Origin: Planctomycetota bacterium
GTDB taxonomy: Bacteria > Planctomycetota > GCA-002687715 > DRQF01
Assembly (NCBI GenBank): GCA_036479435.1
Contig: JAZGFI010000103.1
Coordinates: 1-64,000, forward strand
Direction of reading: 5' to 3'
Length of the DNA stretch: 64,000 nucleotides
In this document: positions 133-40,334 of the stretch, piece by piece
Numbering within the stretch: the first letter of the stretch is position 1
Layout of the letters: each line of letters starts with the position of its first letter
Made by a program: the position numbers and the translations under genes
The notes under the pieces: generated by a model
The model's database searches: none
The model's input: the letters and a program-made list of their open reading frames with translations, nothing else
What the model was told of the DNA's origin: nothing

Positions 133-1194
133 TCACTCTTGGTGTTTTGGCAGGCTGTAGATTTCTACTTTGTTGCCGTCTTGGTCTTTTAGGATTTGGC
201 CCGCTTCGTTGTGACGTCGTTTGGCGTAGCCCATAGCGATGGGGCGGGCCAGGTGATGCGAAAAGGCGGTGGACGTGACCCATCCGACTTTTTTGTCGCC
301 GTCGAAGAGCTCACTGCCGGCTGGCAGGACCTCCTTACTGTGAAAGCCGCAGAGGCGCTTGTTGGTTTGCCCGTAGGTGCGCAAGCGGGCGACGGTTTCT
401 TGTCCGACGTAGCAGCCCTTGGTGTAGCTGATGGCGTGCGCCATGTTGCATTCCGGCGCTAGGTTATCCTCACTGAGTTCTTGGCCCCATCTCGGCGTGC
501 CGGATTCGATGCGGAGGACTTCTTGTGCCTCAAAACCGACCGGAGGCAGTCCGCTGTTTCCAGCTAACCATCGGATGAACTCAAGGGAATCGGATAGTTC
601 GCATTCGATGAGAAAGGCCGGGACTCCATAGTCGGGGAGAGCTTGCGCTCGTAGCTCGAAGGTTTGCATGTTGAACTGCAATGAGTCGTAGTCCGCCAAT
701 TCAGATAGTGCTTGCGGGGCACCGAGGGCCAGTAGCTCCGTCACCGCCTTGGGACCGGCAATCAACACTCGGCCGTCTTCGGAACTCGCATCGCGAAGCG
801 TGCAGTCGGCGAGCATGGCGACCGGAGCTAACTTTTTCAGGATCACCGGGATGCGATTGGGATGCACCAGAACTCGGACTTGCCCGGGTGAAGGCTGGGC
901 CAAGATGAGGTCGGAGATCATGCGGCCCTTGCGGTCGAGGTAGGCGGCGTAGCCCCCGTTGCCCTCACTCCATCCGGCGACGTCGAGGGTTAGTTGGCCC
1001 TGGAGCATCTGGAGTACGGCCTCGCCCTCAAATTTGATCACTCCCCAGCCTCGCACATCCATCCAACCGCACTCATTGGCAAGAAGTCCTGCTTCTGCGG
1101 CTGAATCACCGAAATGACCCCAAGGGATGGGGAAGCCGCCAGATCCTTCGGCTTTGAGGCGAAGCATGATCTCGTCGAGTTCGTTGGCGCTCAC
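133..1194 (-). CDS. ygfZ: YgfZ/GcvT-family folate-binding protein (Fe-S cluster repair / aminomethyltransferase-like)
   Basis: KGCYVGQE signature, LQGQLT, RIESGTPRWG; GTG start at 1194 with GGAGG RBS. The ORF-track extension to 1992 is antisense to iscS. Confidence 0.85.
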   Translation of the reverse strand: MSANELDEIMLRLKAEGSGGFPIPWGHFGDSAAEAGLLANECGWMDVRGWGVIKFEGEAVLQMLQGQLTLDVAGWSEGNGGYAAYLDRKGRMISDLILAQPSPGQVRVLVHPNRIPVILKKLAPVAMLADCTLRDASSEDGRVLIAGPKAVTELLALGAPQALSELADYDSLQFNMQTFELRAQALPDYGVPAFLIECELSDSLEFIRWLAGNSGLPPVGFEAQEVLRIESGTPRWGQELSEDNLAPECNMAHAISYTKGCYVGQETVARLRTYGQTNKRLCGFHSKEVLPAGSELFDGDKKVGWVTSTAFSHHLARPIAMGYAKRRHNEAGQILKDQDGNKVEIYSLPKHQE

Positions 1195-3534: not shown

Positions 3535-3606
3535 AGCGGGTGATGAGATTCGAACTCACGACAGCTGCCTTGGCAAGGCAGTGCTCTACCACTGAGCTAC
3601 ACCCGC
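3535..3606 (-). tRNA. tRNA-Gly (anticodon GCC), CCA not encoded
   Basis: Minus strand GCGGGTG-TAGCTCAGTGGTAGAGC-CTGCC TT GCC AA GGCAG-...GTTCGAATC-CACCCGC-T gives a full cloverleaf. Confidence 0.97.
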
Positions 3607-35990: not shown

Positions 35991-36806
35991 TCATTTTTTT
36001 TGGGATTTCCACGCTTTCGCGAAGTTTTCGAGGCGTGCCTTGGAGACCGGGTTTTCGACGTAGCCCTCTTCTTTCAGCGCTGATCCTACGATGACGCCGT
36101 CCGCAAATCGCAGCAGGTCGCCAAGGTTCTCTGAGGTCACGCCGCTGCCGACGAACAAGGGGTGCTCTGGAATCGCAGACTTCACCTCAGCGAGGTCGGA
36201 TAGATCACAAGCCGCCCCCGTCGCCGTCCCGCTGACGATCAAGCCGTCCGCGCCGCCGCGAAGGGCGGTTGAGCGCGCCAAGGTTCCGAGGTCTGGGCGA
36301 TATAGGGGCGTGCCAAATTTCACGTCTAAGTCGGCGAGGATTGCGGTGTCGACGCCGACGCGCGCGCGGTAGCGCAAAAGCTCGTTGGCCTTGCCCTCGA
36401 TCAATCCCTGGTCGGTGGCGGTGATACCGGTGAGTACGTTGACGCGGATGAAGGCGGCACCGGCCGCGGCCGCCGCGCCGTAGGCGCCAAGGGCATCGTT
36501 GCGAAGAAGGTTGATCCCCACTGGCAAGGAAAACTTCCGACATAGTTCGGCGGCATAGACCGCGCTGGCCGCCACCACATGGGGCTCGACTTCATCTTTG
36601 GCGAAGGGCGCGTCGCCGTGGTTTTCGAGGATGAAGGCGTCGACACCCTGGGCGCAGTAGAGCTCAGCTTCTCTGAGCATAAAGCTCCCTACTTCGTCGA
36701 AGCCAAGCGTGCTTCGCGGTGAGCCCGGAAGGGGTGGCAAGTGGAGCACGGCAATCCAGGTCTTGGTGTTGCGGTCGCGAAAAGGGGCTCGAAATCGGGC
36801 GGTCAT
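35991..36806 (-). CDS. btpA: BtpA/SgcQ family TIM-barrel protein
   Basis: HLPPLPGSP, ENHGDAPF, GINLLRND, FIRVN, ADGLIVSGTATG, GSGVT, ADGVIVGS. Confidence 0.9.
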   Translation of the reverse strand: MTARFRAPFRDRNTKTWIAVLHLPPLPGSPRSTLGFDEVGSFMLREAELYCAQGVDAFILENHGDAPFAKDEVEPHVVAASAVYAAELCRKFSLPVGINLLRNDALGAYGAAAAAGAAFIRVNVLTGITATDQGLIEGKANELLRYRARVGVDTAILADLDVKFGTPLYRPDLGTLARSTALRGGADGLIVSGTATGAACDLSDLAEVKSAIPEHPLFVGSGVTSENLGDLLRFADGVIVGSALKEEGYVENPVSKARLENFAKAWKSQKK

Positions 36807-36894
36807 GGGGGGGGGGCTTTCGAATATTTACTCAAGCACTGAACCTAAGCTAACCGAAAGGACGAGGTGTGGTGAAACGCAGGGAGCGCACATC

Positions 36895-37716
36895 GTGAAA
36901 GCCGTGTCGGTCGCGTTGGCAGTCTGGGTCCTATTCGGCTCACTGCTGGCGGCACAATCTGAGCCAAGCCCCACGAAGGGTAAAACTAGGGGGCTCAGCG
37001 TCGCGGATATCGAGGCGCTGTTACAAGTTGGCGTCTCGGATCTAGACTTGATCAAGCTCGGCGACCGTCGCGGCTGGCCCTCTAAGTTGCGGCAAGCCGA
37101 TCTGATGCGGCTCGACCGGGTGGGCGCCCAAAGACGACTCCGCGAACGCCTCCTGGCCCGCTTGGAACTAGGCTCCAAGCGCGGTCAACGCTTGAAGACT
37201 CTGCGGCCCTACGATGGCCGATTCACCAATGCTCGCAGGCAAGAGCAGCGCTACGCCTTATTGGTGCCGCAGGGGTTTGAGTTCCGCTCGAGCCAAGGTG
37301 GACGGCGCTTAGAGATCATTGGGTCGGGTTCGGCGGATTGGTTTTCAAGGCGCAGCTACTTCCTTTGGATTTTGGACCGGAAGACATGGCGGCCATCCGA
37401 TGCGCTAGCTCTGAGTAAAGTTGTCGCCGATTCGGCGCTGGCACGTATGAAGCGCGGCGGATTGAAGCTGAGCCCGCTCGAATTCTCCTACCTCACGGAC
37501 CCCGAAACCCGAACTCGCTACCCGCACTATGATGCCCTCGGTCGCGATCCTGAGACGGATCGTGGCGGCGTTTTCGCCCTCGCGCTGAAGATCCCAGCTG
37601 ATGGCGACTATTTCGCGGTGATGGGCTACACCAGCCCCACGAAGATCGCAGGACAAGATGAAAGCGATGACCCGGCGACTATCCTCAGCCTGATGCTCGG
37701 TTCCCTTAAGCTCTAG
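36895..37716 (+). CDS. Hypothetical secreted protein
   Basis: GTG start after AGGGAG; signal peptide ..LLAAQ; LSVADIEALLQVGVSD helical N-terminal motif. Confidence 0.6.
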   Translation: MKAVSVALAVWVLFGSLLAAQSEPSPTKGKTRGLSVADIEALLQVGVSDLDLIKLGDRRGWPSKLRQADLMRLDRVGAQRRLRERLLARLELGSKRGQRLKTLRPYDGRFTNARRQEQRYALLVPQGFEFRSSQGGRRLEIIGSGSADWFSRRSYFLWILDRKTWRPSDALALSKVVADSALARMKRGGLKLSPLEFSYLTDPETRTRYPHYDALGRDPETDRGGVFALALKIPADGDYFAVMGYTSPTKIAGQDESDDPATILSLMLGSLKL

Positions 37717-37799
37717 GCAGATCGTTGGCGGAATCGCCTAACATAGCCCTGCCGGGCTCAAATCAATAAATTGTATGACTTGTGCGGGGCCAAGGATGT

Positions 37800-38290
37800 C
37801 TTGACTTTTGTCTCGGCGATCTTCAGGTTGGAAGCGTCCATCCGGTGGAAACGCCGGAAAAAATGAAATTGGGAAAAGGGTAGACGGCGAGGATGTGGAG
37901 GTGTGCCGTAGATGAGGTGTGTTTCAACGTACCCTTTTCTTTGCCAATGAGTGCGGTGTGCTGAGAGCCGTCCCCTTTTCCCAATTCCCAATCCCTTTGA
38001 CTTTCGGACGTCAGGGGCCTCGACCTTGAGTCGAAGAAACCCCAACACTCCCATTGCCGCGAAGATCGATGGTCACTCAGTTGTCCAAGCCCGAGTGACC
38101 TGGCGGGTGGAGTCTACGTTCTCGTCCCGCCGCTGGTATAGATAATACAAACTGGGTCTAAGTTCGGAAGGGACTTTAGGAAAGGAAAGGTTTAGACCCG
38201 CAGATTTCGGCCTCTGCTGCCGCAAGGAGGGTTTGCGACAACACTAAGGGCGGCGGTTGGAAGAGAGAAAGTCCCTAACTTCGGCTAGAT
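37800..38290 (+). ncRNA. Candidate large structured non-coding RNA of unknown family
   Basis: About 10 helices in 480 nt between convergent genes, GAAA and UUCG-type loops and G-U pairs on the + strand, long-range pairings and a pseudoknot (see findings). Confidence 0.5.
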
Positions 38291-39280
38291 TTTCTTACCT
38301 TCAGGCGATTTCGCCGGTTTCTTGGGGGTCTTTTTTGTGGGTGGGCGCTTTCCGATCGTCCAGGCGGCAAGCCATTCCACTTTTCGCAGCGACAGATCGG
38401 GCATACGCTTCTTGAGGCGGCGCTCAAAATCCGCCATGTGTCCCGCGCCGTAGAGAATAGCCACTCTCCGGGTTGTTTTGAGCCCGCGAAGGCGATCGAG
38501 CTCCAAAAGAGCGTGCTCATTGCGCGCCTCGATGATGATGGCGTCGCGTTTTTCCTCTTCGCGGCGTTTGAAGCGCTGGTAGTAAGCGTTCCCGTCGCCC
38601 AAGACTTGCGCCAGGGAGCGCTTGGCGCGGTCGCGGATCAGGTTGAGGAAGGCTGGCGTCTTGCCGTCCTCCTTGGGTTCCAGTGCTTTCAGGAAGCGGC
38701 TGAGTAAAGGTCCCATCGATTGCACGATGTTGGCGGCGGGGACGAGGGTGATCTTGGCCTCTTTGAGTCGCTGTTGCACGTCTTTTGCCGAGAGGTCGGC
38801 ATGGACGAAGTTCTTTCCCGTCGTCACCAAGCGATCGCGTTGGTGTTCCAAGGCCAAGTAGTCCTTCAGTTGATTTTGAAGGCGGTCCAGGAGCGTCAAG
38901 AGTGAATCCTCGTTCAGCTCTGGGTCCGGTTTGAGGCCCTCGAAAAGCACATGGGGATAGGGTTGGAGCTTTTTTTGAAGGCTGTCGTAGTAGCTGCGGT
39001 CGCCAATGTGAACGGCTGACACCAAGGTAATATCGAGGTCGGCTTCTTCACTGCGGTACTGAACGATGGCGGTTTCAAGCCGCTGGATCTTGCGGCCTTT
39101 GCTGTAACGGATAAAGCGCGTTTTTTCCTGATGCGTGTTCGGCGCTAGGGCGCCAAGTCTAGTAGCCTGTAGGCTCGGTGGCGCTGCAACGGGGCCATCG
39201 AGCTCGCCCGCTGAGATACCAAATGACAGAGTAAACAGAGTCAGCCAAAGGCTGAGTGTTGCGGGACCGAAGCTAATCAT
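38285..39280 (-). CDS. Secreted TraB/GumN-like protein
   Basis: Signal peptide; LETAIVQY, LVSAVHIGDRSYY, VLFEG, VHADLS, IIEARN, AILYGAGHM. Confidence 0.7.
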   Translation of the reverse strand: MISFGPATLSLWLTLFTLSFGISAGELDGPVAAPPSLQATRLGALAPNTHQEKTRFIRYSKGRKIQRLETAIVQYRSEEADLDITLVSAVHIGDRSYYDSLQKKLQPYPHVLFEGLKPDPELNEDSLLTLLDRLQNQLKDYLALEHQRDRLVTTGKNFVHADLSAKDVQQRLKEAKITLVPAANIVQSMGPLLSRFLKALEPKEDGKTPAFLNLIRDRAKRSLAQVLGDGNAYYQRFKRREEEKRDAIIIEARNEHALLELDRLRGLKTTRRVAILYGAGHMADFERRLKKRMPDLSLRKVEWLAAWTIGKRPPTKKTPKKPAKSPEGKKI

Positions 39281-39377
39281 CTATTTGTCTCCTCAGCTCC
39301 CCAATTTGGGATTAATGAAAATAGCAGTTTCGGGGCCCCGAAACATCCGCCGGGCCAAATCAGGAGGTGGCAAGTCT

Positions 39378-40334
39378 TTGACGAGCGAAGGGAATGCATC
39401 CAGCGCGATCCGAGCCGAGGGTCTTTGCGTCCGCTACGGGAAGTTTGAGGCGCTTTCAGAGCTCAATCTCGACTTCCGTGGACCCAGCTTGGGCCTTTTG
39501 GGCCCCAACGGCGCCGGGAAGAGCACTTTCATCAAGACCCTGCTGGGGCTTATTCGCCCCAACGCCGGTCGTGCATCGGTCTTGGGCCTGGACTCCCGCC
39601 GCCAACGCTTGGCGCTTAGGCGCAGCGTCGGCTACGTCCCCGAAAAAGATTGCCATATTCCAGAGATGAGCGCGGTGGACTACGTCACCTTAGGCGGTGA
39701 GCTTGCCGGGATGCCACGCAGTGACGCGATCCAACGGGCCCACGAGATGCTCCAGTTTTGCGGAGTCGGTGAAGCCCGCTATCGCGCCGTCGATGACTAT
39801 TCAGCCGGCATGCGGCAACGGACAAAGCTGGCACAAGCCTTGGTGCACGACCCCAAGTTGGTGTTCTTGGACGAACCCACGAATGGCCTGGATCCAGAGG
39901 GTCGCCTGAAGTTGCTGTCCGTTCTTCGCGACCTGCAGGAGAATAAGGGCATTCGGATCGTGCTCTCATCGCACCTTCTGCGAGACGTAGAATTCGTCTG
40001 CGAAGAGGTGATGGTTTTGCGCCGAGGTCGCCTCGTCGTACATGGCAACGTTCTCGAACTAAAACAGCTTTCCGATCGCCACTTGCTGGTGAAAGCGCGA
40101 GGCGACATCGCCGTCTTTCAGCGTGCGCTCGAAGGCAAAGGCTGCCAGTTCGAAGACGACGGTAAACAAAGCTACCGGGTGATCGTGCCGAGCGGTTGCG
40201 GGAGCGAACTCATCCTCGAGACGGCCCTCGAAAACGATATTCAAATCCGACATCTCAAACGCGAAGAGTCAAGCTTGGAGGAGGCCTTCCTCTCCGCGCT
40301 CGACGGTGAGGCCAACCGTCATGCCGGTCTATGA
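39378..40334 (+). CDS. ABC transporter ATP-binding protein
   Basis: GPNGAGKST, YSAGMRQR, FLDEPTNGLD, SSH; TTG start after AGGAGG. Confidence 0.92.
   Translation: MTSEGNASSAIRAEGLCVRYGKFEALSELNLDFRGPSLGLLGPNGAGKSTFIKTLLGLIRPNAGRASVLGLDSRRQRLALRRSVGYVPEKDCHIPEMSAVDYVTLGGELAGMPRSDAIQRAHEMLQFCGVGEARYRAVDDYSAGMRQRTKLAQALVHDPKLVFLDEPTNGLDPEGRLKLLSVLRDLQENKGIRIVLSSHLLRDVEFVCEEVMVLRRGRLVVHGNVLELKQLSDRHLLVKARGDIAVFQRALEGKGCQFEDDGKQSYRVIVPSGCGSELILETALENDIQIRHLKREESSLEEAFLSALDGEANRHAGL

Follow-up and report, generated by a model that had tools for sequence, protein, structure and literature searches.

In the Firmicutes, the small RNA RsaE/RoxS and the UCCC loops of RNAIII are C-rich and target Shine-Dalgarno sequences, in organisms that, like the one studied here, have no detectable requirement for Hfq. 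The element analyzed here, found in an intergenic region of a 64,000-nucleotide stretch of planctomycete DNA (the whole of which is referred to below as the window), resembles them in having several C-rich motifs, predicted to be exposed, that could in principle pair with GAGG-type sites. It differs from them in belonging to the Planctomycetota and having no homology (Rfam, E up to 10), in carrying its motifs within a single loop of ~78 nt closed by a helix of 15-22 bp rather than in separate hairpin loops, and in having received no target support from either a duplex scan or a genomic count of GAGGTGTG. Its repeated short motifs, long invariant stretch and single-copy, housekeeping-like conservation recall CsrB/RsmZ, CrcZ and 6S RNA. 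Unlike the setting of CsrB/RsmZ and CrcZ, however, the class that carries the element had CsrA in none of 23 genomes and Hfq was not found in G000, the genome of the window, and the rod with a central bubble that characterizes 6S RNA is absent.

Two further groups of RNAs invite comparison. The element shares with P1-closed riboswitch aptamers a covarying closing helix around a conserved core that has little Watson-Crick pairing, but it differs from them in that no co-oriented gene lies downstream in the family of the window and its likely strand is opposite to that of the transporter genes. With OLE, GOLLD, ROOL and raiA it shares an intergenic position and, in this genome, many predicted hairpins; those RNAs are 400-800 nt long, whereas the conserved part of the element is ~120 nt and its outer hairpins are not conserved between genera.

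Conservation of the element and its neighborhood

The gap that holds the element measures 568 bp and separates an ORF at 36709-37716 (+) from a converging ORF at 38285-39280 (-), in agreement with the ~570 bp between convergent genes given in a preliminary description of the locus. That description had proposed a large multi-domain RNA on the plus strand, and a script check located all 10 of the complementary pairs that it named, nine of them perfectly Watson-Crick and one (37841-47/37852-58) with a single G-U. The gap is richer in inverted repeats than expected by chance: between 37800 and 38290 there are 16 perfect inverted 8-mers, 7 of which derive from a single 14-bp helix, vs a mean of 2.4 in 500 dinucleotide shuffles (0/500 reach 16), and 9 perfect inverted 9-mers vs 0.55 in the shuffles (0/500). 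The preference for the plus strand did not follow from these confirmed pairings, because the whole gap folded better than its shuffles on the minus strand only (z -4.33, 0/100 shuffles as good) and not on the plus strand (z -1.19, 13/100 as good).

Within its own genome, the gap sequence occurs once. A blastn search over 40 relatives returned a match in all 8 genomes of the same family and in none of the 32 others, with every match confined to query positions ~140-278 (window 37856-37994), and alignment between genera, in which the genus of the window is represented by its own genome alone, revealed no similarity outside this core. Within the core, an alignment (A2) of 9 genomes from 5 genera has 66 invariant columns. 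A covariance model built from 9 sequences (R1) found the element in 12 of the 23 genomes of the order, which are the same 23 that represent the class, and a second model rebuilt with second-family sequences (R2) found it in 13 of them, with one copy per genome in both cases. By family, R2 detected it in 9/9 genomes of the window's family, 4/8 of the second family (genera g10, 3/3; g13, 1/1; g12, 0/1; g7, 0/3), and 0/5 and 0/1 of two other families. When 151 genomes sampled evenly across the phylum, G000 among them, were searched, the 128 outside the class gave no credible copy; two apparent distant homologues were discarded, the one in G140 being a 22.5-bit match inside a long ORF and the one in G092 a 42-nt hairpin only. 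An exact-pattern scan returned 20 metagenome and 38 genome-collection stretches, of which 4 and 12, respectively, were confirmed by the model, and all the confirmed copies belong to lineages already known to carry the element. Among the genomes searched, the element is thus restricted to one class of uncultured planctomycetes.

The loci are syntenic, with the single copy always in the same gene neighborhood. A weakly conserved protein ("up", 25-28% identity), to which no family was assigned and which is 4.5 kb away in one genome, lies left of the core in 8 of the 9 family loci fetched, and a converging TraB/GumN-like protein ("down", 37-43% identity) lies to its right in 7 of the 9. The interior of the core is nearly invariant across the same genera in which these flanking proteins are only 25-43% identical, which argues for strong selection on the element. 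The converging gene of the window (38285-39280) had no Pfam or NCBIfam match at E up to 0.01; a protein atlas placed its product with TraB/GumN-family clusters (feature score 0.95, TM 0.71), and its N-terminus resembles a signal peptide. Beyond it, 39135-40334 (+) encodes a DrrA-like ABC ATPase whose listed GTG start overlaps the converging gene by ~145 nt; because of this overlap, and because homology begins near residue 78-92, its true start is probably later. In the homologue of the "up" protein at G001:C3:82506-83411, two in-frame TGA codons were reported, which could reflect a frameshift, a pseudogene or an assembly error.

In the second family, a methyltransferase gene, an unknown gene and an ABC ATPase gene are all co-oriented on the plus-sense strand, with the ABC gene of G019 starting ~200 nt downstream of the element. 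At three loci of this family (L021, L022 and L023), the class I methyltransferase ORF runs 22-25 nt into the element, and at L022 (1520-1522) the UGA of the conserved GUGAGGAU (plus sense) serves as its stop codon.

As stated in the preliminary description, the gap holds no credible ORF. The mechanical ORFs inside it are 98, 64, 53 and 50 aa long, and a Pfam search of the 98-aa and 64-aa products gave no match. The invariant block is interrupted by indels of 1, 2 and 3 nt, and an AUG-initiated frame stops after 3 codons in genus g3 and after 12 codons in G000. In tblastx comparisons between genera, the core was matched in all frames with none of them consistent, and the stretch from the core to the converging gene showed no conserved peptide. 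The frame-breaking indels and the lack of a conserved frame indicate that the element is non-coding, and on the same grounds we rejected a reading as a small ORF.

Comparison with known RNA families

The 4227 models of Rfam 15, a library that we take to include OLE, GOLLD, ROOL, raiA, RNase P, group I/II introns, small ribozymes and riboswitches, were searched with a score at or near the gathering threshold as the criterion for a match. At gathering thresholds, only tRNA matched in the whole window, and nothing matched on the element; the match is a tRNA gene at 3535-3606 (-) with 72.8 bits. In the region 37650-38350, on both strands and at E up to 10, the only result was a 15.7-bit chance match to CRISPR-DR8, and in seven homologous or related loci searched at E up to 1 no family matched the element. 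ARAGORN found 0 tmRNA or tRNA genes in 37500-38500. The preliminary description had seen no signature of tmRNA, RNase P, SRP or group II introns; the bacterial SRP RNA was found at full length (62.3 bits, above the cut-off) on another contig, C252.

Several specific identities were also discarded. The element, a stem with one large loop, lacks the architecture of 6S RNA, for which the best genomic match lies elsewhere: this 6S-like candidate, at G000:C271:8802-8988 (+), covers the full model length and scores 35.2 bits vs the Rfam cut-off of 46.4, and its contig also carries the 16S 3' end. GAGG/GGA motifs in the plus sense raised the identity of a CsrA sponge, which was rejected as CsrA (PF02599) was found in 0/23 genomes of the class and in 3 of 14 controls. 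Dependence on Hfq or ProQ was discarded as neither PF17209 nor PF04352 was found in G000 (one genome, 92% complete), and a bacterial Y RNA as Ro/TROVE (PF05731) was not found in the same genome and the neighboring genes encode a protein of no known family, a TraB/GumN-like protein and an ABC ATPase. For a generic riboswitch, the right-hand gene converges in the 6 family loci in which that gene was found, and is co-oriented only in the second family. A full-text literature search found no description of such an RNA. As the element matches no tested family, we rate it as a new, lineage-specific small RNA family.

Structure and likely transcription unit

The core folds with z -3.9 on the plus strand and -4.5 on the minus strand (coordinates in Table 1). 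In a model-fitted alignment, 11 of the 13 pairs of the closing helix P1 changed on both sides, and 95.8% of its cells paired vs 85.6% in shuffles (0/500), values to be read with the caution that the arms are a purine tract opposite a pyrimidine tract. In a structure-naive alignment, P1 registers that have been slid retain 66-86% pairing, and covariation shows a modest excess, at 0.439 vs 0.356 (2/500). P1 is the only well-supported structure of the element; the inner helices are unproven, since the interior varies too little within the window's family, and is too idiosyncratic in the second family, to demonstrate them. A small inner hairpin, GGGUA/UACCU in the minus sense, is retained with two compensatory changes in G013 (read by eye), and the inner pairs proposed by RNAalifold differ between strands.

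Table 1. Positions of the features of the element and its candidate transcription unit in the window.
Feature	Position	Strand	Basis or remark
Conserved core (P1 + ~78-nt interior)	37867..37986	-	Sole part conserved across genera and families
P1 5' arm (14 + 6 bp), minus sense	37967..37986	-	Exact complement of 37867-80 and 37883-88
P1 3' arm, minus sense, with 2-nt bulge at 37881-82	37867..37888	-	Pairing and alignment
Interior "loop", C/A-rich in minus sense	37889..37966	-	Nearly invariant in family; open in the minus centroid
-10-like hexamer TATTAT	38142..38147	-	TAnnnT search, 13/13 loci
-35-like hexamer TTCCGA, weak match	38164..38169	-	16 nt from the -10-like hexamer
U-rich tail UUUCAUUUUUU after P1, candidate 3' end	37856..37866	-	Read from sequence
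Putative 5' leader	37987..38135	-	Sequence not conserved between genera; hairpins in minus-strand MFE
Leader hairpins	38102-38131, 38071-38100, 38020-38034, 37993-38017	-	Pairings confirmed
Quasi-palindrome GTACA-N3-TGTAC, degenerate (3 mismatches)	38139..38151		By eye in G000

In the minus sense, the interior is predicted to be mostly unpaired. It holds 3-4 anti-Shine-Dalgarno-like motifs that contain CCUC, AUUGGCAAAG and GAAAAGGGUAC, together with a purine-rich AUUGGCAAAGAAAAGGGUAC stretch; the motifs common to both families are CAC(A/G)CCUC, AUUGGCAAA, CCUCAUC (degenerate in G021), C(A/C)CACC and (A/U)(U/C)CCUC. Another interior motif, GAAAAGGGUA (minus sense), is almost a copy of a segment of one P1 arm and could form a perfect 10-bp pairing with the opposite arm, with an 8-bp version in most genomes of the family. 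The pairings concerned, 37873-37882/37930-37939 (I5) and 37928-39/37969-80 (D2), could represent an alternative conformation in which P1 is open.

We consider that the element is probably read from the minus strand. Within genera, conservation halts ~10-25 nt to the left of P1 but reaches ~120-150 nt beyond the core on the right, where the conserved block terminates in a TAnnnT hexamer; a -35-like hexamer is found 16-18 nt upstream of this hexamer in the minus sense. Such -35/-10-like hexamers lie upstream in the minus sense in 13/13 loci at distances typical of each lineage (112-118 nt from the core in 7 loci, 149-155 nt in G000 and G003, 56-75 nt in the 4 second-family loci), and the same search in the plus sense was positive in 2/13 loci, at scattered positions. 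All 4 second-family loci share TTGC(G/A)C-N16-TAnnnT, the last hexamer reading TA(A/T/C/G)G(G/C)T; here the hexamers are kept and the 16-nt spacers have diverged, as expected if the sites form a promoter. The -35-like hexamers of the window's family are weak, and a stricter sigma-70 scan of 37600-38400 called no promoter. In relatives, the quasi-palindrome GTACA-N3-TGTAC overlaps the -10-like hexamer, at a distance of 117-122 nt rightward from the core. Of the 9 family loci, 5 match it with 0-1 mismatch; it has 2 mismatches in G003, is degenerate in genus g5, and is a possible candidate operator for a dimeric regulator.

These signals delimit a likely transcript of ~280 nt on the minus strand, from ~38135 to ~37856, for which the predicted fold has z -4.21 (0/200 shuffles) on the minus strand and -1.49 (13/200) on the plus strand. 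A U/C-rich tail follows P1 in the minus sense at homologous loci as well; as P1 encloses ~80 nt, the combination of P1 and U-tail is not a canonical intrinsic terminator. In the putative leader, one hairpin keeps its pairing with different letters in genus g3. The wobble pairs of P1 give mixed indications of strand. Taken alone, the P1 arms are more stable in the minus sense in 8 of the 13 loci, including 4/4 of the second family, in which the arms have A-C mismatches in the plus sense, and the plus sense is favored in the other 5. The outer P1 pairs in 91.7% of cells in the minus sense, where 24 G-U cells correspond to A-C mismatches in the plus sense. On the other hand, an inner P1 pair is U-G in plus (C-A in minus) in 5 of the 9 family genomes, from two genera, and only the plus strand accommodates a 3-bp GCC/GGY pairing in which a G-U has changed to G-C.

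Possible function and alternative readings

The best explanation that we can offer, to which we would give slightly less than an even chance, is a small RNA of ~230-280 nt that is transcribed on its own from the minus strand, with strand, promoter and ends inferred indirectly. Its 5' half would be a fast-evolving leader of simple hairpins, four of which had been listed in the preliminary description, and its 3' half the conserved core, in which a P1 of 15-22 bp would hold out the ~78-nt, largely unpaired, C/A-rich interior, followed by the U-rich tail. The exposed CCUC motifs might then pair in trans with purine-rich, ribosome-binding-site-like stretches of mRNAs. This mode of action, suggested by the resemblance of the motifs to the anti-Shine-Dalgarno end of 16S rRNA, is possible and yet doubtful in our judgment. 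The 16S 3' end of G000 is canonical (...GGAUCACCUCCUUUCU). The complement of the commonest motif, GAGGTGTG, was not enriched at ribosome-binding positions genome-wide: among its 75 genomic sites, 5 had a start codon 4-11 nt downstream and an ORF of at least 80 aa, and 2 of these 5 were near an ORF 5' end, eight control 8-mers having given 1-10. When the interior was scanned for duplexes with each of the 13 loci, only GC-rich, non-recurrent sites near neighboring genes came up. A 17-nt perfect inverted match was seen between 37941-37957 and window positions 1066-1082 (E 0.018 for the genome), the latter ~105 nt into a minus-strand CDS whose mRNA is complementary to the minus-sense RNA; as a target it was rejected as probably due to chance, given that it involves genome-specific letters and that the version of the relatives gives a stop codon.

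The same minus-strand RNA could act, instead of by base pairing, as a decoy or scaffold for a protein or ribonucleoprotein; it could, for example, imitate the 3' tail of 16S rRNA or provide an RNA-binding factor with a C-rich, G-poor landing site. We regard this as unlikely. A nearly invariant stretch of ~78 nt, which speaks as much for a protein or ribonucleoprotein partner as for pairing with mRNAs, is far longer than a seed for base pairing has to be, and such stretches typify RNAs recognized by a conserved macromolecule; the motifs are repeated, and no target class emerged; but the usual partners were not found (CsrA in 0/23 genomes; Hfq, ProQ and Ro/TROVE in 0/1, G000), and no candidate partner gene is consistently adjacent, as the "up" protein has no family and is once 4.5 kb off. 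A more elaborate reading, which we hold to be rather improbable, would make of the element a new RNA class and a multivalent mimic of the ribosome's 3' tail, in which the large loop displayed by the helix carries 3-4 copies of the anti-Shine-Dalgarno core and either clamps the ribosome-binding sites of many mRNAs or titrates a factor that binds the 16S 3' end, with a genus-specific sibling RNA, in a class where CsrA (23 genomes) and Hfq and ProQ (G000) were not found. In 2 of the 3 genomes of genus g3, a second conserved intergenic block of ~100 nt lies between converging genes, at L086 (G006:C180, 989-1011) and L087 (G008:C755, 855-872). It shares with the core a purine-rich motif of 19-21 nt, GGCAA(A)GAAAAGGGUACG in the core's minus sense, and is flanked by a -10-like box, TATA(C/T)C, and, on its opposite side, by a bidirectional terminator hairpin; a blastn search of the remaining 7 genomes of the family did not return it. 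This block may be a sibling small RNA.

If the element is instead read from the plus strand, it could be a cis element in the 3'-UTR or an intergenic part of a longer mRNA, downstream of the "up" or methyltransferase gene and, in the second family, ahead of co-oriented transporter genes; we assign a low probability to this reading, that of a riboswitch- or attenuator-like aptamer closed by P1. All the second-family neighbors lie on the plus-sense strand, with the G019 ABC gene at ~200 nt; a conserved junction closed by P1 is the usual layout of aptamers; in the plus sense an inner hairpin is followed by CUUUUCUUU, which was flagged as terminator-like; both the GCC/GGY pairing and the U-G pairs of P1b suit this strand; and an alternative partner for the 3' arm of P1, a downstream GAGAGAGGG, is present in G019 and G022. 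However, alternative pairing of this type is absent at other loci, the next plus-sense gene converges in the window's family, leaving nothing to regulate, no conserved promoter or block lies upstream in the plus sense, the plus-strand z of the region is not significant, and no Rfam riboswitch matched. A DNA-level element without an RNA function of its own, such as a protein site, a cruciform or a bidirectional transcription stop, would account for the strand-neutral Watson-Crick covariation in P1, the mixed wobble evidence and a position where transcription units meet, but G-U/U-G cells are tolerated in P1, a non-palindromic invariant interior of ~78 nt is far larger than a protein operator, and the flanking genes of the second family are co-oriented and not converging, so that we consider this reading very improbable.

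We find it equally hard to sustain the plus-strand RNA of ~490 nt (37800-38290) that was first proposed, with a long-range helix and a pseudoknot, as a member of the ribozymes or large ornate RNAs. Its listed helices all exist, the inverted repeats exceed those of shuffles, and its outer parts were compared across genera only. But the ~120 nt at 37867-37986, which hold the 14+6-bp helix, are the sole part conserved in other genera, the plus-strand fold is no better than shuffles, and no OLE, GOLLD, ROOL, RNase P, tmRNA or intron model matched, nor was there any other indication of such a class. The 9-bp pseudoknot and the hairpins at 38154-38290 are situated between the promoter-like site and, upstream of it, the stop codon of the converging gene, in the 3' tail of that gene; the hairpin at 37841-58 and one arm (37817-24) of the long-range pair fall beyond the likely minus-strand 3' end. 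What stands of the proposal is a conserved, structured, non-coding element, undescribed and without an Rfam match; its size, strand and class are not supported. The element is real and under strong selection, but smaller and less exotic than first proposed, and probably on the opposite strand.

To our knowledge, post-transcriptional regulation in the Planctomycetota is almost unexplored. For the PVC group as a whole, the table of a 2022 review gives only 8 sRNA families (PMC9029176). On a conservative reading, the element adds one more orphan sRNA family, in a lineage in which the usual RNA chaperones and sponge partners were not found (CsrA, 23 genomes; Hfq and ProQ, G000). It may also show an unusual architecture, a giant loop clamped by a helix and bearing repeated anti-Shine-Dalgarno-like motifs, and, if its transcript is confirmed, it would provide an entry point to RNA-based regulation in this uncultured class.
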